In this document: positions 42,828 to 57,662 of the stretch, one piece after another
Layout of the letters: each line of letters starts with the position of its first letter
Position numbering within the stretch: the stretch's first letter is position 1
DNA from: Ignavibacteriota bacterium
GTDB taxonomy: Bacteria > Bacteroidota > Ignavibacteria > UBA10030
Assembly (NCBI GenBank): GCA_963727825.1
Contig: CAVSHO010000009.1
Location: 32,001-96,000, forward strand
Direction: 5' to 3'
DNA length: 64,000 nt
Notes under the pieces: generated by a model
What the model saw: the letters and a program-made list of their open reading frames with translations, nothing else
The model's database searches: none
Told to the model about the DNA's origin: nothing
Program-made: the position numbers and the translations under genes

Positions 42828-44462
42828 ATGAAGAAAATTAAGGATATCGCTTCACAGTTGCATATCTCCGAGGATGATCTGATTCTCTATGGCAATTACA
42901 AAGCTAAAGTACCATTGAAATATATAGACAACAATAAACTAAGAAATAGCAATTTGATTCTGGTCTCAGCTATTTCTCCGACGCCCGCAGGAGAGGGAAA
43001 AACGACCATATCAATCGGTCTGACACAGGGAATGAATAGAATCGGAAAACAAACAACGGTCGTGCTGCGAGAACCTTCCCTTGGACCGGTCTTCGGAATG
43101 AAAGGTGGTGCGACAGGAAGCGGACATGCGCAGGTCGTTCCTATGGAAGACATCAATCTTCATTTCACCGGAGATTTTGCGACTATTGAGAAAGCACACA
43201 ATTTACTCGCTGCTCTGATAGACAATAACATTCAAAATAAAAAATATAATTTAGGAATTGATCCTCGAACAGTTCACTGGAAGCGAGTGATGGATATGAA
43301 CGATCGTTCGCTCAGAAAAATTATTGTTGGTCTTGGTGGAACTCTCTCGGGGATCCCGCGTGAAACTGGATTTGATATTACAGCTGCTTCGGAAGTCATG
43401 GCTATACTCTGCCTTGCGGAGAATCTTACCGACTTAAAGCGAAAATTGGGAAATATTTTCGTAGGATTTACTTTTGACAAGAACCCAATATATGCACGCG
43501 ATTTGAAAGCAAGCGGTGCAATGACCGCACTGTTAAAAGATACTATTATGCCCAATCTTGTACAAACCATTGAAGGAAATCCTGCAATTATTCACGGCGG
43601 TCCTTTTGCCAACATCGCACAAGGAACAAATAGCGTTGTTGCAACAAAGATGGGTTTATCTCTTTCAGATTATGCAGTTACAGAAGCTGGATTTGCATTT
43701 GATTTGGGAGCAGAAAAATTCTTTGATATAAAATGCGGTTATTCAGGATTATCGCCTAAAGCAGTCGTCCTTGTAGCAACGTTGAAAGCATTAAAATATC
43801 ATGGCGGTGCAGATTTAAAAACTGTTAACCAGCCGAATAAAGAAGCTTTGAAGAAAGGCCTGGGCAATCTCGAGAAACATATTGAAAACATTATTGCTTT
43901 CGGTATACGCCCGGCGGTTGCGATAAATAAATTTACCGCCGACACAGAAGAAGAGCTAAACATCGTAAAAGATAGGTGCAAAGAGCTTGGAGTGCCTGCA
44001 TCCATAGCAGATGTGTGGGGAAAGGGCGGTGAGGGTTCTATGGAGCTTGCAGAGATAGTCTGCGATATAGCAAAAAATTGCAAAAACAGATATATCCCAA
44101 CATATGATTGGAATTGGGATATTACGAAAAAAGTCGAAACCATTGCAAAAAATATTTATGGCGCAAAAGCAGTAGAGTATACAGCCAAAGCTAAAGCCGA
44201 TCTAGAAAAGATAGAGAAACTTGGTCTGGATAAACTTCCCGTGTGCATGGCAAAAACCCAGAACTCACTTTCCGATGATCCAAAACTACTTGGCAGGCCC
44301 CAAAACTTTCTGATAACAATAAGAGAAATTGAAGTTGCTGCCGGTGCTGGCTTTGTCATTCCGATCACGGGTGAAATAATGCGCATGCCGGGCCTTCCTG
44401 CTGTTCCGGCTGCCGAAAACGTCGATGTAGATGACAACGGAAAGATTACGGGATTATTCTAA
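42828..44462 (+). CDS. fhs: Formate--tetrahydrofolate ligase
   Basis: PTPAGEGKTT, REPSLGP.FG.KGGA.G, EDINLHFTGD, HGGPFANIA, MPGLP. Confidence 0.97.
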   Translation: MKKIKDIASQLHISEDDLILYGNYKAKVPLKYIDNNKLRNSNLILVSAISPTPAGEGKTTISIGLTQGMNRIGKQTTVVLREPSLGPVFGMKGGATGSGHAQVVPMEDINLHFTGDFATIEKAHNLLAALIDNNIQNKKYNLGIDPRTVHWKRVMDMNDRSLRKIIVGLGGTLSGIPRETGFDITAASEVMAILCLAENLTDLKRKLGNIFVGFTFDKNPIYARDLKASGAMTALLKDTIMPNLVQTIEGNPAIIHGGPFANIAQGTNSVVATKMGLSLSDYAVTEAGFAFDLGAEKFFDIKCGYSGLSPKAVVLVATLKALKYHGGADLKTVNQPNKEALKKGLGNLEKHIENIIAFGIRPAVAINKFTADTEEELNIVKDRCKELGVPASIADVWGKGGEGSMELAEIVCDIAKNCKNRYIPTYDWNWDITKKVETIAKNIYGAKAVEYTAKAKADLEKIEKLGLDKLPVCMAKTQNSLSDDPKLLGRPQNFLITIREIEVAAGAGFVIPITGEIMRMPGLPAVPAAENVDVDDNGKITGLF

Positions 44463-44496
44463 ATACAATTTATAAGAAAATGAAAGATCAAATTTA

Positions 44497-45369
44497 ATGA
44501 GCGTTGCAGGACTTACTATAATCGGCGAATCGATAAACGATTCGGTTCCATCTACTCACGAGCTTTTCGAAAAGAATGATATCGCCGGCATTATCGAGTT
44601 AGCAAAATCTCAAGCCGAAAGCGGTGCTGCCTATATCGACGTAAATGTCGGGCTACGTTCCCCTGGATTCATGGCGGATATTGTAAAAAAAATTCAGGAA
44701 CATATTTCTCTTCCGCTATCAATTGATACTCCAGATCCTGAAATAGCCGCTGCTGGATTGGAAGCTTACAATCCAGTGCTTGCCGGAAAGCGGAAACCGA
44801 TTCTGAACTCAATTTCCCAGGCACGGCTGCAAATGTTCGACATCTATAAGAGACAGCCATTCATTCCGATAATGCTCCTCACAGAGGGGGCAGAAAAAAG
44901 TGGCGATATTAAAATGAACAAAACTGCCGAAGAAACTTTCGCTACAGCAAAAATCATGATGCATATCGCACGCGAACGCATTAATGATGTAGAGAACAGC
45001 GAGCTGATTCTTGATCCGGGTATTATGCCAATCGGAAGTGATTCAGACGGAAATTTTAAGCGGCTGATAAATTCGATCAGGTTAATCCATGAAGATGCCG
45101 ATCTCAAGGGCGTGAATATGTCCGTCGGGCTTAGCAATTTTACTGTCATGTTGCCATCAAAACGCGCAGACGGTTCGCCGGTAAAAGGTCCGCTTGAAAG
45201 CGCTTTTTTAACAATGGCAATGCCCATGGGATTTAATACTATTATAGGTTCAGTGAAAAGGAAATATTCGATTCTTGCAGACGATCACCCAGCAATGCAG
45301 TGTTTAAAGGATGTGTTGGAATTAGAAGGTTATGATATCATTATGAGAGTTATGAGTTACTATTCTTAA
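44497..45369 (+). CDS. Stand-alone pterin-binding methyltransferase (corrinoid:THF methyltransferase, AcsE / MetH folate-domain-like)
   Basis: IIGESIN, GAAYIDVNVG, PLSIDT, ILNSIS, ILDPG, VGLSN motifs. Confidence 0.85.
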   Translation: MSVAGLTIIGESINDSVPSTHELFEKNDIAGIIELAKSQAESGAAYIDVNVGLRSPGFMADIVKKIQEHISLPLSIDTPDPEIAAAGLEAYNPVLAGKRKPILNSISQARLQMFDIYKRQPFIPIMLLTEGAEKSGDIKMNKTAEETFATAKIMMHIARERINDVENSELILDPGIMPIGSDSDGNFKRLINSIRLIHEDADLKGVNMSVGLSNFTVMLPSKRADGSPVKGPLESAFLTMAMPMGFNTIIGSVKRKYSILADDHPAMQCLKDVLELEGYDIIMRVMSYYS

Positions 45370-45395
45370 GATAATTTTGAAAAGAACTTAATTAA

Positions 45396-45854
45396 ATGCC
45401 GCTCGATTTTGTTACATCTGGAAAACCCCCAATATCACTCCGTGAACGGAAACTCTCCCGCTTCATGCTTTTTTTTGAGGACGTTGTAAAAGTTCCTCTA
45501 TTCGGTTGCCAGCATTGCGGTGAATGTATATTAGCTTCTACAGCTTTTATCTGCAGCCAAAGATGTCCTAAGCGGATACGCAACGGTCCATGCGGCGGTA
45601 CAGGCGAAGGAGGATCGTGTGAGGTGTTTCCGGAAAGAAAATGCGTATGGTACAGAATCTATTATCGGTCAAAATTGCTAAATCGTATCAGTTTGCTATA
45701 TCGCATAAAAAAAATACACAACTGGAATTTGGAAGGTACCTCAGCCTGGCTAAATCTATTCAAAAAGCGAATTGAGGCACCGACCTGGTTTCTCCGCAAT
45801 GATAAACAAAAGATAAAGGATATTATTTCCCGTGACACTCAAAGAAAAAATTGA
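45396..45854 (+). CDS. MetV-like (MTHFR C-terminal Cys-rich) subunit
   Basis: CQHCGEC...C...CPK.IRNGPCGG...CEV.....CVW; overlaps the start of metF. Confidence 0.85.
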   Translation: MPLDFVTSGKPPISLRERKLSRFMLFFEDVVKVPLFGCQHCGECILASTAFICSQRCPKRIRNGPCGGTGEGGSCEVFPERKCVWYRIYYRSKLLNRISLLYRIKKIHNWNLEGTSAWLNLFKKRIEAPTWFLRNDKQKIKDIISRDTQRKN

Positions 45855-46728
45855 ATCAAATAGGTTCATTGTCTGCGGTGAGATAGGTCCACCCAAAAGC
45901 TGTGACGGCAATGTTATTCGGGAAAAGTCAAAGTACTTTAAAGGTCTTGTTGACGCAGTCAATATAACAGATAACCAAACGGCAGTTGTCAGTTTATCAA
46001 GTATTGCTTCAGCGAAGATATTGCTGGAGGAAGGCATCGAACCGATTATGCAAATGACATGCCGCGATCGGAACAGGATTGCAATCCAAAGTGATTTATT
46101 AGGTGCCGCTGCATTGGGCATCAACAATTTACTTTGTCTCACCGGCGATCATCAGAAATTCGGCGATCAACCCGAAGCTAAAGGCGTGTTCGATCTGGAT
46201 TCAATCCAACTAATTGCAACTGTTGCTAAAATGAACAGTGGTTTTTTCCTTTCCAATCAGGAAATGAAAAAAGCTCCGGATTTTCTCATCGGTGCCGCCG
46301 CAAATCCATTTGCCGAACCGTTTGAAATGCGGTTAATCCGTTTGCATAAGAAGGTAGAAGCCGGTGCGCGTTTCATACAAACTCAACCAGTGTTTCATAT
46401 GGAGGTTTTCAGGCGGTGGATGGAAAAAGTTGTCGAAATGGGACTGTATGAGAAATGCGCAATTCTTCCCGGTGTCATGCCAGTAAAATCGGAGAAAGTT
46501 TTGCTTCATATGAAAAAGGAAGTCCCTGGTGTAAAAATAAACGATGAATATATCAACCGCATGAAAGAAGCGCGCGATCCTAAAGAAGAAGGTATAAAAA
46601 TTGCAGTCGAAATGATTCAATCACTACAAAAGATAAAAGGCGTCCACGGTATCCATCTTATGCCCGTTATGTGGGAAAGCATCACTCCGATCATTATCAA
46701 AGAGGCAGGATTAGGAACGTTAAACTAA
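45832..46728 (+). CDS. metF: Methylenetetrahydrofolate reductase (MetVF type)
   Basis: EIGPPK, AVNITDN, QMTCRDRN, LTGDH, FDLDS, KKVEAGA.FIQTQ. Confidence 0.92.
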   Translation: MTLKEKIESNRFIVCGEIGPPKSCDGNVIREKSKYFKGLVDAVNITDNQTAVVSLSSIASAKILLEEGIEPIMQMTCRDRNRIAIQSDLLGAAALGINNLLCLTGDHQKFGDQPEAKGVFDLDSIQLIATVAKMNSGFFLSNQEMKKAPDFLIGAAANPFAEPFEMRLIRLHKKVEAGARFIQTQPVFHMEVFRRWMEKVVEMGLYEKCAILPGVMPVKSEKVLLHMKKEVPGVKINDEYINRMKEARDPKEEGIKIAVEMIQSLQKIKGVHGIHLMPVMWESITPIIIKEAGLGTLN

Positions 46729-46755
46729 TCCTTTACATGGTTTATCATAAGAATA

Positions 46756-46792
46756 AACCTGTCACATTAAGTATGTTGAAATGTGACAGGTT
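46756..46792. terminator. Probable bidirectional terminator between the convergent operons
   Basis: aacctgtcacatt...aatgtgacaggtt perfect 13 bp stem. Confidence 0.7.
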
Positions 46793-46870
46793 CTATAATA
46801 TATCTCAATTGCAAAAATTTTTGTATGTTTCAATTTTTTAGGCAACGAGAAATTTTCACACTGTTATTCT

Positions 46871-48023
46871 TCACTGAACTTTTTTAGCAAAGGCTTCTCC
46901 TGCATACTGCTGCATTTGAAAACCATTAACCTTGCCTGTCTTATCTTTCTCAAAATGAATCGATAAAAACTGACCTTTGATGTAAAAATCTTTCTCAGTT
47001 TCTGCATAGAATGGTATCTTCTGGTTTCCAGGAGCAATGCCAACAAGTTGATTATCTTCTCGTACTATTTTGATATGAAATTGAGGACTGATTTCGTACT
47101 CGCCAACATATTGATCCAATATTTTGTCATCAATTTTTAAACAAGGCTTTTCAAATACATACTGTAATCCTCTGTTAAATCCTTCAGGTTTTGTTCCTGA
47201 ATGTCCGGATCCCTTTATTACCGGAGCTTCTACCTCTAGGCCTTCAATATGATAATCTCTAATAGTTGCTGCCAGTTTTTCAAAACCGGGGACATTCTCA
47301 TATTCACCCATCATCGTATACAGTTTTATTGGATGTGATAATTTTACTTTTGAGAATTTCTCTGCATACTTGTACAACGAAGCATTATCCCATGTCCAAG
47401 CTGGACTTCCAGCGACATAATGATTGAATAAATCGGGTTCAGTAAAGAGAGTATATAAAGTGAACAAACCACCTAGCGAGTGCCCAACCAATGTGCGTTC
47501 ATTTTTCTTTGTTCGATATTTTGATTCAATAAAAGGAATCGCTTCATTCTTAATGAACGAGAGAAATTTTTCGGCATTGCCAAATTGCGATGGCTGACCA
47601 CTGTTAGTTGGTGTTAAATCAAAAGCACGTCGTTTATCATAATTCGGATTTTCACCGCCCCACGTAATACCGGCAATAATAGCTGCAGGCATAAATCCGT
47701 CATAATATTGATCTCCGTAAATAGCTGTTACTAATGAAAAATCCCACTGGCTATCTACTAAATAAATAACCGGGTATGTTTTACTCGTATCTTCATAATG
47801 CTGCGGCAAGTTTATATGGAGTTCGTATTCCTGTCCGGTAATAGCAGAATGAATTTTCAAGAAGCTGTGAGCCGGCAATTTCAACCTGAGGTGGTCGAAC
47901 AGATGAAGCATCTTTTGCCTGGCCAAAACTTTGAGCAGATAAGAGTAAAGATAAAAAGATGAAAACAAAGATTTTACCAATCTTATCAAAACTATTATTA
48001 TGAATTTTGTGCAATGTGTTCAT
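46871..48023 (-). CDS. Exported alpha/beta-hydrolase esterase (IroE/BesA-like) with C-terminal DUF3471-like domain; +1 frameshift near 47860
   Basis: YPVIYLVD, GHSLGG nucleophile motif, LDQYVGEY tail; signal peptide is in ORF 47793-48023. Confidence 0.8.
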
Positions 48024-48136
48024 AAGAATTCCCTTCTCAATGTGGATAATTTTAACGAGTAATTATCTATTATTTGACAACAAGCGAAAAATCAGAATCT
48101 CAAGGGGCTCAATTTCACAGGTTCTAACAGAATGAA

Positions 48137-49006
48137 TCAAAATCCGGTGCTTACTTCCGGAATACGCTTAAGGAGATCCCGCATCTGTTCCTGGTTCTCC
48201 TGTCCAATGGTGAATGCATCTATACAATTGAGGCTAAGGACGTACCGGAGGCATTCATCAATCTGATGGCGAAGTTGACCAGCTCCAAAAATTTTCATCC
48301 CAACAATTCCCTTTCCATCTTTATGCATTCTTCGTAAGACTTTAACCACCGTTGGGACATCGGCATCCATTACCGCCCCCGCTTGGTTAATTCTGGCAAG
48401 ATCAACCTGCACCCAATCTGAATTGGCAGCCGCTTCTAACGCCTTCAAAGAATGGCAGGAAACACCATGTGCGTGAATAATTCCCTGTTCGCGCGCTTTA
48501 GCTAAATACTCCATCGCTCCTTGCTTTTGACCGGGCCAGTCTGCATCTGTCATCATGTGCAACAGGACTATATCGATATAGTCGACTCCAATTTCCTTCC
48601 GGAATCGATCCAGATCTTCCTGCATTTCGCTGGCATCAGTTGCATGGGTCTTTGTCAATATCACAACGTTACTGCGTGGCACTCGCTTGAGTGCCTCTTT
48701 CATATGAGGATGACTTCCGTATTGATCTGCCGAATCCCAAAAGTTTATTCCCTGATCATATGCAGCACATAGAAGATCCGCGACACCCTTCATACCAAGT
48801 TCCCGTGTCTGATCCGAATGATGGTTATATCCATTCGTACCTGTGCCCATTGCTAATCGCGAAACCTTTATGCCCGTCTTGCCAAGTGTGATAATATCAT
48901 TTGCATATTTCTTATCCTCCCCCATAGCAAAAATCTTTGCCGCTGGTGAAAAAGCCAGAGCACCAGCAGTGGCCGCAGTATATTTGAAAAATTCACGTCT
49001 TCTCAT
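48137..49006 (-). CDS. Aldo/keto reductase with twin-arginine-like leader
   Basis: MRRREFFK..AGALA leader; LGKTGIKVSRLAMGT, WDSADQYG, ILTK, DIVLLH. Confidence 0.85.
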   Translation of the reverse strand: MRRREFFKYTAATAGALAFSPAAKIFAMGEDKKYANDIITLGKTGIKVSRLAMGTGTNGYNHHSDQTRELGMKGVADLLCAAYDQGINFWDSADQYGSHPHMKEALKRVPRSNVVILTKTHATDASEMQEDLDRFRKEIGVDYIDIVLLHMMTDADWPGQKQGAMEYLAKAREQGIIHAHGVSCHSLKALEAAANSDWVQVDLARINQAGAVMDADVPTVVKVLRRMHKDGKGIVGMKIFGAGQLRHQIDECLRYVLSLNCIDAFTIGQENQEQMRDLLKRIPEVSTGF

Positions 49007-49089
49007 AACAGGAATTTTTATATGTTCAAATCAATTGGTGGATAGTAAATGTATCATTCGATTTAAATATGTGGGTGATTTAAAAATTA

Positions 49090-50115
49090 TTATTTTCTCA
49101 CCGCTTCGATAAATGCTTTAATGTTTTCCGTACTAACTGCGGGCGGCATCCCTCCTCCGCAAGAAAAAATTACTTTAGATTTATCAATCAAAGAATTTAC
49201 TAGATCGATTGTTGTTTCTGTAACCTTGGCGGTATCGCTGCTTGCCAAAACATCGCGCGGAGGAATATTACCTACTAATGTTACTCTATTTTGGGTCAAT
49301 TGTTTCAATTCATTCAAAGAAATATCAAAACCCATATTGAATAGATTTACTCCTATCTCCGGTAGCATAGGTGCAGACACCTTGCAGGGGGCATCATTAT
49401 GCAAAAATTTGATAGAAACACTTGCATCAAATAATTCTTTGAAATATGGCAATCCGAAAGTGCGAAATTCTTCCTCCCCCATAAAACCGATTATATCGTC
49501 CAGCAAAAGAATCCCGTCGATGGATGGGAATGTTTCCATTTGCAGATTCAGCCAATCCTTAAGAAATAACGTGATTTTTTTCATTAGTGTTTCAGCTTTT
49601 TCCGGCTGCATCATCATCGTAGTCAAAAATTCTGTAGAGCCCATTAGATAACTGGCAATATTTAGAGGACCGCGGGCTACGGCAAATCGAATTTTATGCC
49701 CGGCTGCTTCAATTTTTGGTTGGGCAAGTCTTAAACGATTGAGCATGAATGGCAAAAGACCATCTGTTTTCGGGTTCGGCTGCAGAAGCGAATCTATATC
49801 ATCAACCGATTGGATAATTTTATGCGCATGCGGAAATTCGTTCATCGGGAATACGCAGCGTGCTCCAAACGCCGATGGTTCAGTACACATACCGAATTCA
49901 GACCAGAATCCTGGCAGAAACATTACCTCTGGAAAATCCTGGAGTGCTTTCAAATTTGCCTTCAACCATAATTCATCATTTGAAAAATAGTCAAGAATAT
50001 TAATGCCATACCAATTCGGTAACCATGGACAATCAATAATGAAACCCACCGGCAAAGGATTTAAAATTTCTCCCTTTATTATTTTCTGAAGCATTTCCCA
50101 TTGTTGATCTGTCAT
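49090..50115 (-). CDS. UROD/MtaA-fold protein, probable substrate:corrinoid methyltransferase
   Basis: RGPLNIASYLMG, LLDD, FLHND, LVGNIPP.DVL, IFSCGGG...NIKAF; lacks the HemE MRQAGR motif; adjacent to corrinoid genes. Confidence 0.8.
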   Translation of the reverse strand: MTDQQWEMLQKIIKGEILNPLPVGFIIDCPWLPNWYGINILDYFSNDELWLKANLKALQDFPEVMFLPGFWSEFGMCTEPSAFGARCVFPMNEFPHAHKIIQSVDDIDSLLQPNPKTDGLLPFMLNRLRLAQPKIEAAGHKIRFAVARGPLNIASYLMGSTEFLTTMMMQPEKAETLMKKITLFLKDWLNLQMETFPSIDGILLLDDIIGFMGEEEFRTFGLPYFKELFDASVSIKFLHNDAPCKVSAPMLPEIGVNLFNMGFDISLNELKQLTQNRVTLVGNIPPRDVLASSDTAKVTETTIDLVNSLIDKSKVIFSCGGGMPPAVSTENIKAFIEAVRK

Positions 50116-50194
50116 CCTACTTTCCCTTCATTCTTTTATGCAACGACCATTTCTATTTGCATATTACTATTTCTGTTTTTTACGGACTCAAACT

Positions 50195-50950
50195 TTATGA
50201 TTTGTGAATAGCACGTTCTGCTTTGGCGACGCGAATTGCTCTATATGTACAATCCTTCATACCGCATGTATCGCAGGTATAATCGACTCTTTTAACTGCT
50301 TTTCCGACACCTATAATCCCACTAACAGATTTAATCGGCACCATTAATGAAGATTCGGTCAGAGTGATTCCACAAAAATTAGCTGGAAAGAACGAAAATA
50401 GGAGTTGTTGTTCCGACACAGACCAATCGCAATAACCTGGACTGTACCTATTGGTAATTTTTAGTCCTTGTAACCGCATTTGCTTTTCGATGTGATCATG
50501 AAGCACATCAGTTGTCTGTTCTTCTGTTACCGATGCAACAATATCGACCATGTAACCTAACGTGGCATCACCGTCGGCAAACAATTTTTTTGCCCAGGTT
50601 TCCATCGCCCGGCCTATGGTACAGACAAACAACGCTGCCTTTTCGGATTTTCTGAGCTGGCTTGTAACAATCTTTTGTAATCTGAAAAATTTATTCCCGA
50701 TAATTAATCCATCATTTCGATCTTCGGTTTTTTTAACATCGAGAAGCCGATAGCCTGCTTGTATTTCACAATATTCTGGTAATCGAAAAAGAATATCATC
50801 GATCATTTCTTCAAAATGTGGCGGAATTGTTCCCTTCGTATATCCAAGAGCAGTCACGATTTCATTTTTACTAATTGATAGATCGCTGAAGTTAATTTTA
50901 ACTTCAAAAGTATCTTTCTCTCGTTCGATTTGTGGAAATATAATTTCCAT
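50195..50950 (-). CDS. Stand-alone B12-dependent methionine synthase activation domain protein
   Basis: FVCTIG, RYSPGYCDW, LTESSLMVPIKSVSGIIG and terminal CDTCGMKDC. Confidence 0.85.
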   Translation of the reverse strand: MEIIFPQIEREKDTFEVKINFSDLSISKNEIVTALGYTKGTIPPHFEEMIDDILFRLPEYCEIQAGYRLLDVKKTEDRNDGLIIGNKFFRLQKIVTSQLRKSEKAALFVCTIGRAMETWAKKLFADGDATLGYMVDIVASVTEEQTTDVLHDHIEKQMRLQGLKITNRYSPGYCDWSVSEQQLLFSFFPANFCGITLTESSLMVPIKSVSGIIGVGKAVKRVDYTCDTCGMKDCTYRAIRVAKAERAIHKS

Positions 50951-51834
50951 CAGTGAACTCTAATTGCATGGACTAAACTCTGGATATGTGACGGCGTAGT
51001 ACCACAGCAACCACCGATAATATTCGCCCCGCTATTTATCAAATCCTGAACTTTTGCAGCCATCATTTCCGGTGTTTCCGGAAAATCCGTTTTACCATCT
51101 TGATAAATAGGCTTGCCTGCGTTGGCATGGACGAGGATAGGAGTTGATGGATCAATACTTCTGATTTCCTTTACTATGTCAATCATTTGATCGAATCCGT
51201 TTCCGCAATTCGTCCCGATGACACAAGCTCCAGCATCCTTAATCGCCTGGACCATTTCCGCAGGTGCAACTCCCATCATCGTACGGTATTCACCATTGAG
51301 GGTTTTTTCAAAAGTAAAGGTACATGCAATTTCCAAACCAGTAGATTCATGCGCTGCACGAACCGCGAGACACGCTTCATCAAGAGCAGACATAGTTTCT
51401 ACACAAATGGCATCTACGCCGCCTTTTTTAAGAGCTTCTGCTTGAATACAGAATCCGTCGTATAATGTCTCTTCAGATACTTGTCCCATCATCAACATGA
51501 TGCCAGTAGGACCGATGGAGCCAAGCACAAGATGATTTCCACCTGCTGCTTCTCTTGAGATAGCAGCAGCAGCTTCATTTAACTCGGAGGTACGATCTTG
51601 CAACCCATAATGCTCCAACTTAGACGGACTGCCGCCAAAACTGTTGGTGAGAATCATATCAGCACCGGCGTCGATATAACTATTGGCAATTGCAAACACA
51701 TCGTTGCGGTGAGTAACATTCCAAAGTTCCGGACATTCCCCGGGCTGTAAACCACGTTGATATAAAAATGTTCCCCAAGCACCATCGGAGATGAGGACTT
51801 TTTTTTCTTTTAGCGCCGTTAGAAGTAAACTCAT
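50950..51834 (-). CDS. Homocysteine S-methyltransferase domain protein (MetH Hcy-binding module)
   Basis: SDGAWGT, GADMILTNSFG, GSIGPTG, GTNCG, NAGKP, GGCCGTTP zinc ligands. Confidence 0.9.
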   Translation of the reverse strand: MSLLLTALKEKKVLISDGAWGTFLYQRGLQPGECPELWNVTHRNDVFAIANSYIDAGADMILTNSFGGSPSKLEHYGLQDRTSELNEAAAAISREAAGGNHLVLGSIGPTGIMLMMGQVSEETLYDGFCIQAEALKKGGVDAICVETMSALDEACLAVRAAHESTGLEIACTFTFEKTLNGEYRTMMGVAPAEMVQAIKDAGACVIGTNCGNGFDQMIDIVKEIRSIDPSTPILVHANAGKPIYQDGKTDFPETPEMMAAKVQDLINSGANIIGGCCGTTPSHIQSLVHAIRVH

Positions 51835-51903
51835 TCCTGATTTTCCCGATTACTTAAAAATTATTATCCTGTTGCCAAGGTGAGTTGTTTTTCTTTTATC
51901 AGG

Positions 51904-52572
51904 TTATGCAATACTAATTTTATCTAGAAATGCCACCGCACCCTGAGGATCATGAGAATAGCTATCTGCACCCATTTTCAAGGCAGCTTCCATAGTCAAA
52001 GGCGCACCGCCAACAATAATTTTCGTGTCTGGAAATTGTGTTTTAATTTCCTGAACTGTTTTCGACATATTGATCATAGTCGTCGTTAGCAAAGTGCTTA
52101 AACCGACTATGCAACCCGGAGTATTCCTGATCGTTTCTAAAAATTTGGCCGATTTAACATCGACACCCAAGTCTATTACTTCCCAGCCATTACCTTCGAT
52201 AACCATTCTGACAAGATTTTTGCCAATGTCATGCAAGTCGCCTGCGACAGTACCAAGCACAAATTTTCCCTTTGCTTTAATACTTCCCTTTTTGAAAAAT
52301 GGTTCAAGATGAACCATTACAACCTGCATCGCTTTAGCTGCCATTAATAGTTCAGGAACAAATACTTCGTTTCTACTGAACCGTTCCCCGATCCGCTGCA
52401 TTCCATCGTTGCATGCTTTTAGAATAATATCAGGGCCCACTCCTTCTAATAATGCTTGCTTTGTCAATTCATCCGCACCTTCCTGATTTTTTAAATCGGG
52501 TGGATATGGGGCAATCTTGTTAACCTTTCCTCGTTCAATGCATAAACTAATTCTATCAACCAATTCACTCAT
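51904..52572 (-). CDS. Corrinoid (cobalamin-binding) protein, cap + B12 domain
   Basis: FVPELLMAA cap; GDLHDIGKNLV (DxHxxG), DLGVDV, GLS.L, VGGAP. Confidence 0.93.
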   Translation of the reverse strand: MSELVDRISLCIERGKVNKIAPYPPDLKNQEGADELTKQALLEGVGPDIILKACNDGMQRIGERFSRNEVFVPELLMAAKAMQVVMVHLEPFFKKGSIKAKGKFVLGTVAGDLHDIGKNLVRMVIEGNGWEVIDLGVDVKSAKFLETIRNTPGCIVGLSTLLTTTMINMSKTVQEIKTQFPDTKIIVGGAPLTMEAALKMGADSYSHDPQGAVAFLDKISIA

Positions 52573-52637
52573 GTCGAATTCCTTTTGCTATATCGATACT
52601 AGATTTTTCTTAGTTTAAAATTGTGGATCAATAATAT

Positions 52638-54347
52638 CTATTTATATACCTCGTCATTCCCTTGGTACTCAAACCAATCATAATTTGCTATGTTCTTGCT
52701 CATCTGGCCCAGTGAAGTAGCGTACATTGCGTACATAGAACCAACAAATCCACCGGCAATCCGCGTACTTAAGAATGTGGCATCAACATTGTCCTTAAGC
52801 AAATTCCATTGATTGTATATCGAGGAATAGAAAAATGCATACGTGTTTCCCCGTGCTTCAATTTTTAAGTACACTGCTTTTTCGGACATTTCTTTAGAAA
52901 GTTTTTGAGATGCCAAGAGTTCCATAGTGTTGCGTTTAGATCCGGTTCCCGATTTATACAATTGAACCACCGGCTCATTTTCATCAACCGACTCACAAAG
53001 AAAGTAAAAATGTTCTTCATTTTGGAAAACTAACAGACCGGCTTTTTCATTACTTCCCTGAGGGGAGAATTCTAAGGCGACGCTTGCAGACCCATATGCA
53101 TGCTGTTGACGTCTGCCAATAAAACTCGGGTTCTTAATTCCAGAACACATTTCTGGCCTTACCTTGATCGATAGAAATCCCTTCTTACTCTCAAGATTAT
53201 ACCAACTTTCATGTGGAGTTCTCAGGAAGACCCAATCCGGATGAAGTTTTGGCTGATCAAATTCATCTCTGAGAATGAAATTACCGCTGTACGGATGAGA
53301 ATCTTCATCGATGGATGATTGCATTGGATATGGATACGAATACTGAACCAATTCGTAGTCAGGGTTGATAACCGGCCAGCCATCCTTCCATTTTACTGGC
53401 GCTAGAAATGTCTCTCGGCCAATATTCGTATAACCCTCTTCAACAGGTGGATAGGGCCTGGAACCTAAAAAGACCGACCACCAATCTCCAGCATTTGTCT
53501 GCACAAAGTCGGCATGCCCGGTACAGGTTATGGGAAATTTCCGTTTGGGATCCAAATGCCGCTGAGTAAGAATTGGATTTTTCTGATATGGAATATATGG
53601 ACCTTCCACCTTTGTACTTCTAAAAACCACTTCTGAATGCTGATCTGCCGTTCCACCTTCCGCTGCTATAAGATAATAGAATCCATCTTTCTGAAATATG
53701 TGAGGTCCCTCGATCCAGACCGGTTTCTTTGAAATATCAACCCCACCATTTACTAGTAATATTTCTTCTCCCATCGTCTTGAGGCTGTCAAAATCGAATG
53801 CACGCATTCTGATCGTCCGATGGCCGTCATAGAGAGACCTATCATTTGGCGGTATACTATTATAGAGTATGTAGGCATTCCCGTTTTTATCGAAAAACAA
53901 TGAGGGGTCTATACCGTTGATTTGCGGCAGCCAGACGGGGTTGGACCATGGTCCTGCAGGATTTTTTGCTGTAATAACAAAATTCCCGCCTATATCTACC
54001 AATGTGCAGGTAATATAATAGAGTCCTTTATGATGCCGAATAGCTGGTGCAAAAATGCCGCGAGATACACCTTGGCCATCGAGATTCAATTGTTCCACTC
54101 GATTCATTGCATGACCAATGAGCTTCCAATGCACTAAATCCTTACTGTGGAAGACCGGGATACCGGGGAAATATGAAAATGACGAGTTCACTAAATAATA
54201 ATCCGTCCCGACCCTGCAAATACTCGGATCTGGATAGAAGCCAGCAAGAATTGGATTCGTGAATCCCTTTTTATCCTGCGCAGATGAATTGCAGCATAGA
54301 ATGAAAAAGAGTATGAAGAAGACTGTTCGCATAATTAATCGATCCAT
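52638..54347 (-). CDS. GH43 beta-xylosidase/alpha-arabinofuranosidase with C-terminal beta-sandwich
   Basis: NPILAGFYPDPSI, IFAPAIR, GIDPSLFFD, WIEGPH, AEGGT, GHAD, GRETFL; signal peptide. Confidence 0.92.
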   Translation of the reverse strand: MDRLIMRTVFFILFFILCCNSSAQDKKGFTNPILAGFYPDPSICRVGTDYYLVNSSFSYFPGIPVFHSKDLVHWKLIGHAMNRVEQLNLDGQGVSRGIFAPAIRHHKGLYYITCTLVDIGGNFVITAKNPAGPWSNPVWLPQINGIDPSLFFDKNGNAYILYNSIPPNDRSLYDGHRTIRMRAFDFDSLKTMGEEILLVNGGVDISKKPVWIEGPHIFQKDGFYYLIAAEGGTADQHSEVVFRSTKVEGPYIPYQKNPILTQRHLDPKRKFPITCTGHADFVQTNAGDWWSVFLGSRPYPPVEEGYTNIGRETFLAPVKWKDGWPVINPDYELVQYSYPYPMQSSIDEDSHPYSGNFILRDEFDQPKLHPDWVFLRTPHESWYNLESKKGFLSIKVRPEMCSGIKNPSFIGRRQQHAYGSASVALEFSPQGSNEKAGLLVFQNEEHFYFLCESVDENEPVVQLYKSGTGSKRNTMELLASQKLSKEMSEKAVYLKIEARGNTYAFFYSSIYNQWNLLKDNVDATFLSTRIAGGFVGSMYAMYATSLGQMSKNIANYDWFEYQGNDEVYK

Positions 54348-54351
54348 TTTT

Positions 54352-57300
54352 TTACCTTCCTGTATTTGATCTAAGTGCTCCGTAAAAACTTTCAGGAGGA
54401 CCCAAATAGCATTGTTTCACACCGCCTGTATTCACGACAACCTTTTGAAGAACAACACCGGGGTCAACCATCCAGATCTTCAACACGTGATAACCGGGCT
54501 TAGCAATTTTATGAGTTGAATGACTGTAGCGTGCGTTGTCTGCAACCGATTTCTCCCAGTCCATGTTCCCGTGCATCGCACTGAAATTGGCCGGTACCAG
54601 TGTGACGAGTTGCGGTGCCTCTGCATCAAACGAAATTGCATATCGAAGCTCGCGACCGGGTATAAAATTTAACGTCGGGGAATTAATTGTACAAACGTCA
54701 AATGTCCCGGGCTTAAATAAATACATTTGATATTCCAGACATGGTGCATCTATTCCCGGAACAGCGCTGCTCGCATTTGCCGGAGCCACAGCCCTCATCG
54801 CAGATAAAGTATTTCCATAATCTTCAATGTTCATCCATTGCCTAGAGCCAACATCTATTTTCTTCATATAATGCTCGGCTTCTATCGAAATAAAACCTTC
54901 TCCTTCAACGAAACCCTGCAATGAATCACGAGTCATCTCTGTCGGATAAAAAACGTCTATCTTTACATTGACCTCGCTATTTGTACCGATGATTTTTAAA
55001 GAACCAGTACATTTACCTTTTGGTACACTGCTCCAATCTATGTTAACCCAAATACGTTTATCTTTTTCTATAGTGCCCTTGAATTCGCTGAGCAATATCC
55101 ATGAGTCGCTGGCAATAGCACTGAACTCAAATGGTATTTTGCCTTTATTAAATACGTCAACATAATGATGCTGTTGATTGAATACATCGAATGAAGGCAG
55201 TACAGCTTCGGTTTGCGAATTAGGCCAAGATTCTTCAGAACCATCTACGGCAACACCCATGGCCGATGTATCCGGTACAGAAATCTCTGTTAGCTTGATT
55301 GCTCGCAGACTATTTTTTGGCGGATCCTGCCAACTTGTATAACCCAAATGTGTTTGATCCATAAAGTGATTCCATTTGCCATTAGCAAACGTGCGATTGA
55401 AATAACCCATTAAACTCGTATCTGCCTGGAATAAATCACGAGTTCTACTCGCCATGTCGTTTGTGCTGACTCGACCTTGATGTGCATATAAAACATTTTT
55501 ACCAGCAGTAAAGTACAATTCGTTCACCAATGCACTGGCTTTTGTGGGAAACAACACCAATTCATAAAATGCGTCACGCTTGTTTTCAGGCAACTTGCCC
55601 GAAATTTCTTCAGCCTTTTTAGTGAGCGTATTAAAATCTGCTACAACTTTTTCCGCTTCCTGATAATTGACTAAGCTGTAAGTTGTCGGACTGAGTAATT
55701 CGGGTTTCCGTCGCCCATTGTATTTTGTGTACTTAGAAAGAATGTCTGCAATTTCTTTGGCATAGGTTGATCCAAATTCCCGCTCAGCCCAGAGCCTTGT
55801 ATATTCACCGATATTATCGTTCTTCCACCTCTCCGTGTTCCAGGCAAGATCCATAAAATATTCTAGCGGAAACTCAAGGCCCTTGAAGTGACCGACGTTC
55901 ACAATCCATATCCTATCGGCACCATATTGTTTGGCAAGTGACATCTGATCCCATATTTTGGGAATCGGATTGGTGTTGACCCATTGGTAGTTTCTGGGCC
56001 CGCCGTGATAGTCGAAGTGATAATAGATTCCTGCACCACCCTGCCGTTTGTTTTCTTCAACAGTCGGCAGACGACGAACATTACCCCAATTATCCTCAGC
56101 CCACAAGAGCGTCACATCGTCGGGAACGCGAAAGCCCTCGTTGTAGTAAGCCAGTACTTCCTTATAGGGACACCATAGTTGGGGTACCTTAGTCACATCT
56201 TTATTTATTTCCTGTTCAATTATACTCCGCTGATCATTTATGATATTTGTCAACAAGTCCATGCTTTGAGCATCTGTACCGCCCGGGATCATTTCCGTAT
56301 CATTTTCTCCCCGCAAGCCTATAGTAATGATGCTCTCATATTTTTTATTACGCCTGATACCTTCACGCCAAAAGTTTTTAAGAACATCCGGATGTTGGGC
56401 ATAATTCCATGGTCCTACCGTTTTAAAGTAGCGTCGATCCCACTCTTTCTGCGCTCTGAGCATAGGTTCTTGATGCGAATTACCCATAACAATCCCATAT
56501 TCATCTGCAAGTCGGGGATTTTCCGGATCGTCTTCATTAAAAGCATTATTCCACATGGCCGGCCAGAGATAATTTCCTTTCAGCCTGAGGATCAACTCAA
56601 ACAACTTTTCATAAAACTGATGATTGTAATTGGCAACACCCGCCGGTATTGGCGGATTTTCGCTTGGAGGAATTGTACCAAATTTTTCAGTAATCCAATT
56701 AGTAAGATCCGGATATTCATCGTTGAGAAAGATTCCTCGATATTTAACGGAAGGCGGTCCTTGTACATATTTACCAGGGATCACAAAAAGGGCATCTTTA
56801 TGTTCTATGGAAACATCCGCCCACCAATACCAGGGAGAGACACCTATCTTTTTCGAAAGGTCATATATTCCATAAATTGTTCCCCGTTTATCACTACCGG
56901 CAATGACAAGTGCTCGTTTGATATGTGGAAACGGATTTTCTACAACTTGGATAAGAAAGGATTCCCATTTTCCCGATATATCATTGACAACGAGTTTCTT
57001 TTCTTTTATCAATCTATCGATAAGCTCGTTCTTCCCTAATGTACCAATTAACACTACTTCCCTTGCTCGTGGCAAGGAGTCGAAACTAAAGGCCGGTTCC
57101 CGCGATGTAACCTTTTTGATATCACTTTGCAAATGCCTTGCAGCCAGAACTATTCCTGGAAAATCTTTCGAGCTAATTATAATGGACGCAACACTTTCAG
57201 CAGATGAGATGGAATAATTGTTGTTTTGTTTTTCAAATTTAATATATGCTGTTTGTTCTTGGGCTTGCATTTTCCCGACTATAGATAGTCCAAGAAAACT

Positions 57301-57381
57301 CATGAGATATATGAAATGCAGCGAATTCTTCAGATATGTGTTATTTTTAAAGTTATAGCCAGAAAATTTTAATGGGGGCAT
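54352..57381 (-). CDS. GH115 xylan alpha-(4-O-methyl)glucuronidase
   Basis: GSDKRGTIYG, GVSPWYWWAD, PSVKYRGIFLNDE, GNYLWPAMW, SHQEPM, YKEV, DNWG, GIYYHFDY.G.PRNY.W. Confidence 0.93.
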   Translation of the reverse strand: MPPLKFSGYNFKNNTYLKNSLHFIYLMSFLGLSIVGKMQAQEQTAYIKFEKQNNNYSISSAESVASIIISSKDFPGIVLAARHLQSDIKKVTSREPAFSFDSLPRAREVVLIGTLGKNELIDRLIKEKKLVVNDISGKWESFLIQVVENPFPHIKRALVIAGSDKRGTIYGIYDLSKKIGVSPWYWWADVSIEHKDALFVIPGKYVQGPPSVKYRGIFLNDEYPDLTNWITEKFGTIPPSENPPIPAGVANYNHQFYEKLFELILRLKGNYLWPAMWNNAFNEDDPENPRLADEYGIVMGNSHQEPMLRAQKEWDRRYFKTVGPWNYAQHPDVLKNFWREGIRRNKKYESIITIGLRGENDTEMIPGGTDAQSMDLLTNIINDQRSIIEQEINKDVTKVPQLWCPYKEVLAYYNEGFRVPDDVTLLWAEDNWGNVRRLPTVEENKRQGGAGIYYHFDYHGGPRNYQWVNTNPIPKIWDQMSLAKQYGADRIWIVNVGHFKGLEFPLEYFMDLAWNTERWKNDNIGEYTRLWAEREFGSTYAKEIADILSKYTKYNGRRKPELLSPTTYSLVNYQEAEKVVADFNTLTKKAEEISGKLPENKRDAFYELVLFPTKASALVNELYFTAGKNVLYAHQGRVSTNDMASRTRDLFQADTSLMGYFNRTFANGKWNHFMDQTHLGYTSWQDPPKNSLRAIKLTEISVPDTSAMGVAVDGSEESWPNSQTEAVLPSFDVFNQQHHYVDVFNKGKIPFEFSAIASDSWILLSEFKGTIEKDKRIWVNIDWSSVPKGKCTGSLKIIGTNSEVNVKIDVFYPTEMTRDSLQGFVEGEGFISIEAEHYMKKIDVGSRQWMNIEDYGNTLSAMRAVAPANASSAVPGIDAPCLEYQMYLFKPGTFDVCTINSPTLNFIPGRELRYAISFDAEAPQLVTLVPANFSAMHGNMDWEKSVADNARYSHSTHKIAKPGYHVLKIWMVDPGVVLQKVVVNTGGVKQCYLGPPESFYGALRSNTGR

Positions 57382-57447: not shown

Positions 57448-57490
57448 ATTGAACCGTTTTAATATTAGCCACATTATATTATTAAGGTAA
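57448..57490 (-). promoter_or_regulatory. LacI-type operator and probable promoter of the GH115-corrinoid operon
   Basis: ATTGAACCGTTTTAAT at 57448-57463 overlapping minus-strand TAATAT (57467-57462), 17 nt from TTACCT (57490-57485). Confidence 0.75.
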
Positions 57491-57646
57491 GAAAAAACCT
57501 CTGAAAAAAAAGCAACAATATCCCGCTAAATAACTCCACAATAATTGCTGCTTCGTAGGTGAAAAACTATTTTAAAGTTTATTAAGTTCAATGTGAATTA
57601 AATCGATTTTATTTAATACTTTCATATTTAATTGCTTATTACTATT

Positions 57647-57662
57647 ATTATACCGGTTCAAT
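57647..57662 (+). promoter_or_regulatory. LacI-type operator, probable autoregulation site
   Basis: ATTATACCGGTTCAAT ends 15 nt before the LacI-family start codon. Confidence 0.65.

Follow-up and report, generated by a model that had tools for sequence, protein, structure and literature searches.

To our knowledge, all characterised O-demethylases of the corrinoid kind act on aryl methyl ethers, and we know of no anaerobic enzyme that demethylates 4-O-methylglucuronic acid (MeGlcA). Two published accounts describe the methyltransferase I (MT-I) enzymes of corrinoid systems as UroD-fold TIM barrels, and aryl methyl ethers as the substrates of the known corrinoid O-demethylases (PMC8630106; PMC13222342). 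The window analysed here, a 64,000-nucleotide stretch of an Ignavibacteriota genome, encodes a UROD/MtaA-fold protein in an operon headed by a GH115 α-glucuronidase. With slightly better than even confidence, this module is read as a corrinoid-dependent methyl-ether demethylase set within a LacI-controlled glucuronoxylan regulon. No publication was found on such a MeGlcA demethylation system.

Gene order and regulation of the locus

According to Pfam, the minus-strand operon runs in the order GH115, GH43, corrinoid protein, homocysteine S-methyltransferase-fold protein (HMT), reactivation protein (Act), UROD-fold protein, aldo-keto reductase (AKR) and esterase, with successive gaps of 4, 65, 69, -1, 79, 83 and 147 bases, HMT and Act overlapping by 1 base (Table 1). 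Domain matches and gap lengths bear out the same-strand, closely spaced order from GH115 to the UROD gene given in a preliminary description, from whose list the AKR and the DUF3471-containing esterase were absent. Both glycoside hydrolases have signal-peptide-like N-termini, and an AKR comes after UROD in 7 of 80 related loci.

Other parts of that description also held. The convergent operon of fhs, a pterin-binding methyltransferase (MeTr), metV and metF is recovered as plus-strand Pfam matches, MeTr matching PRK07535 at 3.1e-31, under that model's cut-off. The folD gene, placed about 6 kb past GH115, lies past the start of GH115 by some 6.4 kb (domain match in the genome search at G000:C9:95750-96253, minus strand). 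The operator said to be shared by the GH115 operon, xylA and galM-xylB, ATTGAACCGTTTYAATA, is present in exactly three exact copies, one upstream of each, and a fourth copy with 2 mismatches lies just 5' of the divergent LacI-family gene. These four matches compare with 0.13 expected, and none of 100 shuffles yielded four or more. In 24 of the 80 related loci, the operator core TTGAACCGTTTCAA stands ahead of operons for GH115, the corrinoid protein, uxuA-SDR, GH3 or xylA. LacI homologues of 72-81% identity occur in 18 of the 80.

Table 1. Features of the locus, in window coordinates
Feature	Position	Strand	Basis or remark
xylA, frame-broken, co-regulated xylose gene	about 37898-39220	-	read in two frames
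Operator upstream of xylA	39295-39311	+	exact match
xylB, co-regulated xylose gene	39479-40975	-	annotated within 37898-42083
galM, co-regulated xylose gene	41034-42083	-	annotated within 37898-42083
Operator upstream of galM-xylB	42162-42178	+	exact match
Fhs, formate-tetrahydrofolate ligase	42828-44462	+	FTHFS 2.7e-250 (Pfam)
MeTr, pterin-binding methyltransferase, methyl-THF:corrinoid type	44497-45369	+	Pterin_bind 9.1e-15
MetV-type small subunit of methylene-THF reductase	45396-45854	+	DUF5981 PF12225 7.9e-26
MetF methylene-THF reductase	45832-46728	+	MTHFR 1.7e-41
Esterase, final gene of the operon	46871-47989	-	PF00756 + DUF3471 (Pfam)
Aldo-keto reductase (AKR)	48137-49006	-	Pfam; twin-arginine-type N-terminus
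UROD/MtaA-fold protein	49090-50115	-	URO-D PF01208 8.3e-35
Act, stand-alone MetH-type reactivation protein	50195-50950	-	Met_synt_B12 1.5e-11 (Pfam)
HMT, homocysteine S-methyltransferase-fold protein	50950-51834	-	PF02574 9.4e-67
Stand-alone corrinoid (B12-binding) protein, proposed methyl carrier	51904-52572	-	B12-binding_2 + B12-binding (Pfam)
GH43 with GH43_C2, β-xylosidase/arabinofuranosidase type	52638-54347	-	Pfam
GH115 α-glucuronidase	54352-57381	-	Glyco_hydro_115 3.9e-150, GH115_C 9.3e-56 (Pfam)
Operator ATTGAACCGTTTTAATA upstream of GH115 operon	57448-57464	+	exact match
Operator-like site upstream of LacI gene	57646-57662	-	2 mismatches
LacI-family regulator, divergent from GH115 operon	57678-58709	+	LacI + Peripla_BP_3/1
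folD, 3' part	63750-64000	-	THF_DHG_CYH_C 7.9e-62; runs past window end

The UROD-fold protein and its proposed corrinoid partners

The corrinoid protein, the only stand-alone one detected across the genome by tblastn, carries the DLHDIG (DxHxxG) motif, and its best solved relatives are 1y80 (4.4e-41) and 4jgi (4.2e-33), with MetH ranking behind. HMT, proposed as the methyl-corrinoid:homocysteine methyltransferase (MT-II), keeps both the Cys within GTNCGNG and the CC pair within GGCCG, and scores under the NCBIfam cut-offs for BHMT and for MetH. Act ends in CDTCGMKDC and has 1j6r as its best solved relative (6.6e-07, SPGY stretch aligned). Since a full-length MetH is encoded elsewhere in the genome (1371 bits, C8), the system formed by these three proteins and the UROD-fold protein is distinct from the housekeeping methionine synthase. 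No MtaB was found in the genome (96.8% complete); given this and the separate MetH, the simplest reading is a dedicated methyl-donor system whose lone MT-I candidate is the UROD-fold protein.

This protein, the proposed 4-O-methylglucuronate:corrinoid methyltransferase, is the product of the sole UROD-family gene over the Pfam cut-off in the genome and belongs to a compact clade of 72-92% identity, whose MAGs carry the labels of seven or more phyla. Its AF2 model (pLDDT 96.3) resembles both HemE and MtaA with a TM score of about 0.8 (0.80 for MtaA 4ay7), but the protein lacks the signatures of either, the MtaA zinc motif not being conserved. Membership in the aryl-ether (MtvB/CdmB-type) MT-I clade was rejected, as CdmB 9rui matches just profile positions 153-345 with 70.6 bits, MtaA and HemE reaching 107-108 bits. 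For the UROD-fold protein, modelling predicts docking on the corrinoid protein: the complex of the two scored 0.76, against 0.00 for the best of three controls. Of 80 solved complexes, 58 attained this mark, as did 2 among 110 mismatched pairs. Docking runs share at least 77% of contacts, with partner pLDDT of at least 81, and the predicted interface spans the barrel mouth (residues 159-171, 211-216 and 245-246).

Genomic linkage and competing explanations

Neighbourhoods were compared in 80 loci kept of 541 confirmed by tblastn. Neighbours counted by tblastn were HMT (42 loci), Act (40), corrinoid protein (39), GH115 (28), GH43 (27) and LacI (18). ORF clusters, named by Pfam with many smaller ones left unannotated, comprised GH88 (18), SDR (18), MFS_1 (16, an MFS hexuronate-type transporter), UxuA (13), GH3 (11), GH10 (7), GH67 (6), GH30 (6), PurU (5) and UxaC (4). 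UROD is accompanied by one or more xylan or uronate genes in 67 loci, and 52 hold an α-glucuronidase or hexuronate gene; 13, some of them 21 kb long (e.g., L025, L034, L046), have no visible xylan or uronate gene. Linkage to glucuronate catabolism and transport genes was not part of the preliminary description.

At genome level, GH115 is found in 12 of 14 UROD carriers vs. 2 of 107 non-carriers in a class sample of 121 genomes, and by genus in 7/7 vs. 2/59. In full, 14 of these genomes carry UROD, 14 carry GH115, 12 carry both and the 105 others carry neither. One carrier (G057) has UROD and Act with neither GH115 nor GH67. In a phylum sample of 251 genomes, GH115 occurs in 9/9 UROD carriers vs. 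26/242 non-carriers; the UROD-fold protein is present in 0 of 216 GH115-negative genomes and is lacking from 26 of 35 GH115-positive ones, including all 23 outside the class. The suggested co-occurrence with α-glucuronidases was seen at the loci, for GH115 and GH67, and in the class sample, for GH115. Because UROD travels with α-glucuronidase and glucuronate genes in many bacteria, the system probably removes the methyl ether of 4-O-methylglucuronic acid from xylan; we infer this substrate from gene neighbourhood only. Of the earlier proposal that the UROD-fold enzyme strips the 4-O-methyl group, the linkage and the lone MT-I candidate stood, while the position of the protein outside the MtvB/CdmB-type clade, its unconserved MtaA zinc motif, the GH115 genomes devoid of UROD, carrier G057 and the 13 loci with no visible xylan or uronate gene speak against it.

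The same methyl-transfer system might serve another plant-cell-wall methyl compound: methanol, an aromatic derived from lignin, a different O-methyl sugar, or a methoxylated hydroxycinnamate such as ferulate or sinapate that the esterase of the operon would release. This is unlikely, although it has several points in its favour: the aryl ether substrates of the known enzymes, as described in the two accounts cited above; the esterase that closes the operon and recurs in 21 of 80 loci, 5 of them with no visible α-glucuronidase or hexuronate gene; MtaB beside the corrinoid-UROD set in 3 of 80 loci; and a second UROD paralogue in 13, which hints at several substrates. The esterase could free methoxylated ferulate, which counts against MeGlcA. 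However, the tightest partners of UROD are α-glucuronidases and hexuronate genes rather than the esterase, and loci devoid of the latter place UROD directly between GH115/GH43 and UxaC, MFS_1 or GH88. No aromatic-acid catabolic gene was found among the Pfam-annotated neighbour clusters, many smaller ones being unannotated, and both the lack of MtaB in this genome and the position of the protein outside the aryl-ether clade argue against such donors.

Less probable still is that the corrinoid protein, HMT, Act and MeTr make up a second MetH in separate pieces, onto whose four modules they map one-to-one, with the UROD-fold protein being a sugar-acid enzyme that transfers no methyl group (e.g., a decarboxylase, lyase or isomerase of a uronate). 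The resemblance of Act to the separate reactivation protein 1j6r fits this idea, as do the true HemE enzymes that are the closest solved sequences to the UROD-fold protein, and the many loci in which UROD lies beside GH115, xylA or LacI with no corrinoid protein, HMT or Act (among them L033, L057, L064, L065, L077 and L084). Nevertheless, the genome already has its full-length MetH, roughly half of the loci (39-42 of 80) have the three genes adjoining UROD in the same orientation, frequently as the sole context, and in printed alignments HemE GRYLPEY and LGHG face family consensus stretches without Arg and without His. The predicted docking also opposes it. Moreover, stand-alone corrinoid proteins occur elsewhere in 8/8 tested carriers that have no local one or no Act: in 5/5 genomes with UROD beside GH115, two of them next to MetV-MetF, and in 3/3 carriers without Act, one within HMT-Corr-RACo. 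The adjacency, the predicted docking and these stand-alone corrinoid proteins also speak against a B12-free demethylation, MetE- or LigM-like, in which the UROD-fold protein would pass the methyl to THF or a thiol and the corrinoid set would be an independent neighbour. That is very improbable, even though cobalamin-independent methionine synthases are the next fold relatives after HemE and MtaA (TM 0.55-0.62) and PurU lies directly 5' of UROD, with no corrinoid gene between, in 5 loci. A brief inspection of the protein also revealed neither a zinc nor a pterin site of the MetE type.

The proposed pathway beside known systems

Under the favoured reading of MeGlcA demethylation, exported GH115 and GH43 would trim xylo-oligosaccharides to free MeGlcA, which would be imported. 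The cytoplasmic UROD-fold protein would act as MT-I, holding the sugar acid in a site that is polar and may bear a metal (H239, D241, D206 and E79, with C244 and C319 in addition in orthologues), where the Co(I) of the corrinoid protein might attack the O-methyl carbon to give CH3-Co(III) and glucuronate, the latter entering a route through UxaC, which the genome encodes. The methyl could leave through HMT to homocysteine, or through MeTr to tetrahydrofolate and then via MetVF, FolD and Fhs to formate. Both fates had been put forward; the THF branch is rarely adjacent (MeTr in 3 of 80, Fhs in 2, MetVF in 2). The methyl flux seems larger than methionine could absorb by itself, which, like the rarity of adjacent MeTr, counts against MeGlcA as the donor. 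Act would rescue oxidised Co(II), probably with SAM.

If the proposal is true, B12-dependent methyl transfer demethylates the methylglucuronate of xylan in an uncultured anaerobe. The activator expected from the preliminary description is present as a reactivation protein, but of the MetH type: whereas classical O-demethylases have ATP-dependent activators of the RACo type, Act is TM0269/MetH-like and presumably SAM-dependent. The substrates differ as well, to the disadvantage of the proposal: phenolate is a good leaving group in aryl methyl ethers, whereas the alkyl methyl ether of a sugar is harder to cleave, its nearest precedent known to us being the zinc-activated methanol of MtaB.

Organization of the glucuronoxylan locus

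All of the genes that the preliminary description had named were recovered in their places by Pfam scans, and a genome search found folD, as it had also proposed, at the extreme end of the window, where the gene continues past the edge. Two members of the minus-strand operon, an aldo-keto reductase (AKR) and an esterase with a DUF3471 domain, were missing from that first list. From the α-glucuronidase GH115 to the esterase, the intergenic gaps are of 4, 65, 69, -1, 79, 83, and 147 bases. Between them lie the genes for the corrinoid protein (Corr), a protein with the homocysteine S-methyltransferase fold (HMT), a MetH-type reactivation protein (Act), and the UROD/MtaA-fold protein (UROD); a pterin-binding methyltransferase (MeTr) belongs to the convergent operon.

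Features of the glucuronoxylan locus and its surroundings in the window
Feature	Coordinates	Strand	Basis
GH115	54352-57381	-	Pfam
GH43 with GH43_C2	52638-54347	-	Pfam
Corr, B12-binding_2/B12-binding	51904-52572	-	Pfam
HMT, homocysteine S-methyltransferase fold	50950-51834	-	Pfam
Act, Met_synt_B12 (MetH activation-type)	50195-50950	-	Pfam
UROD, URO-D fold	49090-50115	-	Pfam
AKR	48137-49006	-	Pfam
Esterase + DUF3471	46871-47989	-	Pfam
Convergent operon: Fhs, MeTr, MetV-type protein, MetF	42828-46728	+	Pfam
MeTr, pterin-binding	44497-45369	+	within convergent operon
xylA	37898-39220	-	
GH10 xylanase remnant	~37370-37878	-	
pfkB-family kinase	36011-37228		
GC-rich hairpin run (REP-like)	42360-42480		
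ROK-family protein	58749-60794	-	
B12-binding radical SAM protein + DUF4070	62194-63681	+	

Reading of the N-termini revealed signal-peptide-like sequences on GH115 and GH43 and no export-type N-terminus on Corr, HMT, Act, or UROD, a distribution that fits release of 4-O-methylglucuronate (MeGlcA) outside the cytoplasm and its demethylation inside. The AKR begins with a twin-arginine-type sequence (MRRREFF...), which suggests that it is exported with its cofactor bound.

Some neighboring features were also recorded. The xylA gene is split over two reading frames, with a start near 39220 and a frame break near 39040-39060, so that there is an indel in the assembly or the gene is a pseudogene; its listed ORF aligns with the xylose isomerase model from position 56 to 435 only. 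Between it and the pfkB-family kinase gene, the remnant of a GH10 xylanase is scattered over several frames. The N-terminal half of the ROK-family protein (~360 residues) has no assigned family, and the gene for a B12-binding radical SAM protein adjoins folD. The REP-like hairpin run in the 743-bp galM-fhs spacer has no Rfam match, and a search of the segment 42000-42900 against Rfam up to E = 1 gave a single match, to a snoRNA at chance level. Riboswitch control was rejected, as the window yielded no Rfam hit at or above the gathering score of the family.

Related loci, operator, and distribution

Relatives of UROD were found in 541 stretches of one-genome-per-species contigs, and the best 80 of these loci, with UROD identities of 72-90%, were analyzed. 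They come from MAGs labeled Ignavibacteriota, Bacteroidota, Calditrichota, KSB1, Fibrobacterota (Fibrobacteres/Chitinispirillaceae), Spirochaetota, Verrucomicrobiota/Opitutaceae, and Kryptoniota. In tblastn searches with the window proteins, the most frequent companions among the best 80 loci were HMT (42), Act (40), and Corr (39), followed by GH115 (28), GH43 (27), the esterase (21), LacI (18), xylA (8), and the AKR (7, in each case downstream of UROD); MeTr was found in 3 and Fhs, MetV, and MetF in 2 each. Corr lies at most 10 kb from UROD in these 39 loci and is on the same strand in all 36 cases identified by ORF clustering. When all the ORFs of the 80 loci were clustered and the clusters named by Pfam, further neighbors emerged, namely GH88 and SDR (18 loci each), an MFS_1 transporter (16), a second URO-D paralogue and UxuA (13 each), GH3 (11), MFS_2 (10), GH10 (7), GH67 and GH30 (6 each), PurU (5), UxaC (4), and MtaB (3). 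Altogether, xylan or uronate genes occur in 67 of the best 80 loci, and an α-glucuronidase or hexuronate gene is present in 52. Several of the 13 loci devoid of xylan or uronate genes are short, yet L025, L034, and L046 extend over 21 kb.

The second URO-D paralogue, found in 13 loci between L011 and L085 (e.g., L030:5388-6407, Pfam 2.5e-52) and missing from the genome of the window, often lies downstream of the first, a few genes away, and may serve another methylated substrate. As for the fate of glucuronate, UxaC is present in the genome of the window, in which UxuA was not found with one tblastn query. That genome also carries an MFS_1-SDR-PfkB-LarN-like-6-phosphogluconate dehydrogenase cluster (G000:C11:199577-205818, L105). 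The same set of genes occurs downstream of UROD-UxaC in L016 and L047, and also in L049, and it may represent a glucuronate route ending in 6-phosphogluconate instead of KDG.

The operator that the preliminary description had ascribed jointly to xylA, galM-xylB, and GH115 withstood scrutiny, with exact copies of ATTGAACCGTTTYAATA upstream of all three. A further copy, differing at two positions, precedes the divergent gene of the LacI family and brings the matches in the window to 4 for 0.13 expected. Its core, TTGAACCGTTTCAA, was detected with at most one mismatch in 24 of the best 80 loci (37 sites in 1.27 Mb, mostly intergenic), where it precedes operons of GH115, Corr, uxuA-SDR, GH3, and xylA. 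These positions indicate that the regulon unites xylose, glucuronate, and methyl-transfer genes in several lineages.

Co-occurrence of the UROD/corrinoid/HMT set with GH115 or GH67 had been put forward as a test of the demethylation proposal; that of UROD with GH115 was examined in a sample of the class (n = 121; UROD orthologue threshold E ≤ 1e-60) and in one of the phylum (n = 251); because the sampled genomes are related and not independent, the counts are given without p-values. In the class, GH115 accompanies UROD in 12 of 14 carriers, with two further genomes having GH115 alone (14 GH115 genomes) and 105 having neither; by genus, all 7 with UROD have GH115, compared with 2 of the 59 others. 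In the phylum, GH115 is present in 9/9 UROD carriers and UROD in none of the 216 genomes that lack GH115; UROD is missing from 26 of the 35 GH115 genomes, including all 23 outside the class. Thus, UROD implies the α-glucuronidase, not the reverse. Among the exceptions, one UROD-only genome, G087, has GH67 without GH115, and its UROD gene (G087:C1:2709001-2710021) is broken by two TGA stops; the other, G057, has neither glucuronidase. In the GH115-only genome G050, a short UROD-like piece (G050:C57:28717-29046) is located 3 kb from GH115. The G087 gene and the G050 piece look like products of gene decay.

The UROD-fold protein and its proposed corrinoid partner

UROD, a core barrel of 341 residues, is confidently modeled (pLDDT 96.3) and scores 120.8 bits with the Pfam URO-D family (cut-off 23.9), of which it is the only member over the cut-off in its genome. 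Foldseek aligned the model with HemE structures at TM 0.76-0.79 (E down to 7.7e-18) and with MtaA (4ay7) at TM 0.80-0.81 and equal length, so that the PDB search does not separate HemE and MtaA as its nearest fold (TM ~0.8 for both). Similarly, the UROD profile matched both over their full length, at 106.9 bits for MtaA and 108.4 for HemE, and CdmB (9rui) at profile positions 153-345 only, about half its length (70.6 bits). Judged from these alignments, UROD resembles CdmB less than it does the short core of MtaA and HemE.

All of the corresponding NCBIfam models scored UROD below their cut-offs, with 62.2 bits for hemE TIGR01464 (302.95), 62.3 for TIGR01463 (235.4), 52.1 for MtaA_Meth (400), and 36.9 for MtbA (600). 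In addition, the HemE stretches GRYLPEY and LGHG, which presumably comprise the substrate-binding Arg pair and the catalytic His, align with the family consensus spflps, with no Arg, and SvGGG (SCGGG in the window protein), with no His. On the hemE score and these missing residues, the reading of UROD as a true HemE was rejected. Of the MtaA stretches HICG and GCG, whose His-x-Cys ... Cys we take to be the zinc ligands, only the His is retained (His239, invariant in 55/55 sequences); the Cys of HICG aligns with Asp/Glu241 (Asp241 in the window protein) and that of GCG with Gly321. Conserved polar residues in the wider family are E/D73, E79, D206, D/H207, H239, N240, D/E241, and N283, and in close orthologues C77, C244, H98, and H140 are also invariant, and C319 nearly so. 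The clade is compact, with 120 clusters (90% identity) at 79-100% identity to the query and only 115 proteins at 1e-30 in a library of 1.84 billion representatives; a search of a protein-cluster database returned 'URO-D family' clusters only.

Corr carries the sequence DLHDIG, which corresponds to the DxHxxG base-off/His-on motif. Its nearest solved relatives, 1y80 (4.4e-41) and 4jgi (4.2e-33), presumably the O-demethylase-type corrinoid proteins of Moorella and Desulfitobacterium, come ahead of MetH. In HMT, the Cys and the Cys-Cys pair found in homocysteine-binding domains are retained. Act has one solved relative, 1j6r, with which the stretch SPGY is aligned; no ATP-dependent RACo-type activator was found within the window, which has this Met_synt_B12-type protein instead. 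Structure prediction of UROD with Corr gave an ipSAE of 0.76, the best of three controls reaching 0.00, with at least 77% contact agreement between runs and a partner pLDDT of at least 81. Of 80 solved complexes, 58 attained this docking mark, as did 2 of 110 mismatched pairs, and the prediction supports probable binding of Corr by UROD.

Of the 121 class genomes, 19 have homologues of Act; among the 14 UROD carriers, 11 do, and all three carriers without it possess Corr. In one of these, G017, the gene order is HMT-Corr-RACo (L106, G017:C28:22344-25898), the last protein having the Fer2 + RACo domain type. Here, one kind of reactivation protein has apparently been swapped for another by non-orthologous replacement.

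A proposed demethylation pathway and its relation to known systems

Hardwood xylan and many other xylans carry 4-O-methylglucuronate as their main acidic side chain, and no oxygen-independent enzyme for the removal of its methyl ether has, to our knowledge, been described. The gene neighborhood makes corrinoid-dependent demethylation of MeGlcA by the UROD system the explanation toward which we lean, if by a small margin over doubt. MeGlcA liberated by GH115 would be imported and bound by UROD, the Co(I) of Corr would accept the methyl group, and glucuronate would be left for UxaC. The methyl group could then be passed by HMT to homocysteine or by MeTr to THF, to be oxidized to formate by MetVF, FolD, and Fhs, with PurU possibly taking the place of Fhs on the formate branch in other genomes. 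Should the corrinoid be accidentally oxidized, Act would regenerate Co(I). This reading has weak points, in that the substrate is an alkyl and not an aryl ether, genes of the THF branch are rarely found beside UROD, and the xylan context is missing in some carriers.

The same methyl-transfer system might act on another plant-derived methyl donor, since the esterase of the operon could free methoxylated hydroxycinnamates; with UROD found so regularly alongside α-glucuronidases, we regard this as unlikely. A methanol route via MtaB was ruled out for the genome of the window (3.12 Mb in 14 contigs, completeness 96.8%, contamination 6.55%), in which MtaB was not found. This methanol:cobalamin methyltransferase (3.7e-156) adjoins Corr-HMT-UROD in 3 of the best 80 loci (L025, L028, and L047), all from non-methanogens.

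It is less likely still that UROD is a non-methyltransferase placed beside a split MetH. The MetH-like modules of the window are indeed separate proteins encoded in two operons, each scoring 20-154 bits against a MetH cut-off of 1010.85. A complete MetH (1371 bits) is encoded on contig C8 of the same genome, which rules out a housekeeping split MetH as the whole explanation, and tblastn found no second stand-alone corrinoid protein there. The full-length MetH elsewhere, the absence of MtaB, the single URO-D gene, and the single stand-alone Corr indicate that the four MetH-like modules form a separate, specialized system, and UROD is the sole candidate for the corrinoid-loading enzyme in this genome. 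In many loci, UROD directly follows GH115 or GH43, or has LacI and xylA as neighbors, and the corrinoid set is missing. Five out of five genomes with UROD beside GH115 and no local Corr hold a stand-alone Corr elsewhere (44-60% identical), adjoining MetV-MetF in two of them; counted together with the three carriers without Act, all eight tested carriers lacking a local Corr or Act have a stand-alone Corr elsewhere. Finally, we consider a B12-independent demethylase very improbable.

In the full-text literature searched, from which subscription journals and supplements were outside the scope, no paper was found that ties either methylglucuronate or GH115/xylan to a demethylase or to corrinoid or cobalamin enzymes. 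The sole carbohydrate demethylase to surface was an O2-dependent P450 acting on 6-O-methylgalactose (PMC6292453). Corrinoid methyltransferase systems being already known, the novelty proposed here lies in the UroD-superfamily clade, the substrate class, the MetH-type reactivation, and the polysaccharide-operon setting. The broader claim is evenly balanced: UROD would be the first carbohydrate methyl-ether:corrinoid methyltransferase and define a new clade of the UroD superfamily, anaerobes would keep the 4-O-methyl group of MeGlcA as methionine or as C1-THF on its way to formate, and the module would have spread at 72-92% identity among polysaccharide degraders of eight labeled groups. If true, the missing step between α-glucuronidase and the glucuronate pathway in anaerobes would be identified, and B12-dependent O-demethylation would be extended from aryl to alkyl (sugar) ethers. 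In anoxic habitats that produce methane, hemicellulose would supply methyl groups and formate, an unrecognized route would lead from xylan methoxyl groups to one-carbon pools in peat, soil, and sediment, and UROD would offer a compact, highly conserved marker gene for MeGlcA demethylation in metagenomes. The proposal is open to a concrete and cheap biochemical test.

Among the known systems of anaerobes, MtvABC, OdmABCD/VdmABCD, and MtoABCD are three-component corrinoid O-demethylases, and CdmABC is a chloromethane dehalogenase. Their substrate-specific methyltransferases MtoB, MtvB, OdmB, and CdmB are UroD-fold barrels, and they share with the present system a UroD-fold TIM-barrel MT-I (here a candidate one) that loads the corrinoid, a small corrinoid protein with the DxHxxG motif, an MT-II of the pterin-binding kind that unloads it, and a reactivation factor (PMC8630106, PMC13222342). 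In contrast, the proposed substrate here is a carbohydrate methyl ether instead of a halide or an aryl ether, the candidate MT-I is as near to HemE/MtaA as to CdmB, which matches only half its length, and the genes sit within a glycoside-hydrolase operon. Reactivation is of the MetH/TM0269 type and not by an ATP-dependent RACo, which occurs in the one relative G017, and the commonest MT-II neighbor has the HMT fold and is not a THF methyltransferase.

The homocysteine, pterin, B12, and reactivation modules are those of MetH and of its split Thermotoga form (TM0268/TM0269), to whose 1j6r structure Act aligns, SPGY included. They are nevertheless encoded as four individual proteins by two operons, none of them scoring anywhere near the equivalog cut-off for MetH, with a proposed UROD-fold methyltransferase attached and a complete MetH elsewhere in the genome. 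The methylcobamide:CoM methyltransferases MtaA and MtbA (4ay7) resemble UROD in fold, length, and the His of HICG (His239), but differ in the Cys residues of HICG and GCG, replaced here by Asp241 and Gly321, in NCBIfam scores (36.9-63 bits here for cut-offs of 235-600), and in that the host is not a methanogen.

In MtgBCD of Ruegeria pomeroyi, glycine betaine demethylation and methionine synthesis share a corrinoid protein, and the system proposed here would be similar in that a catabolic methyl donor charges a stand-alone corrinoid protein on which methionine synthesis draws as well; in MtgBCD, the donor enzyme belongs to the MttB superfamily, the donor is a quaternary amine, the hosts are aerobic marine bacteria, and no link to polysaccharide degradation is described (PMC12478193). 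Lastly, the cytochrome P450 that demethylates 6-O-methyl-D-galactose in marine Bacteroidota would have the same physiological role, as it removes the methyl ether by which the breakdown of a sugar derived from polysaccharide is blocked, but it is an oxidative, O2-dependent enzyme of unrelated fold that releases formaldehyde (PMC6292453), whereas the UROD system would need no oxygen and would conserve the methyl group.
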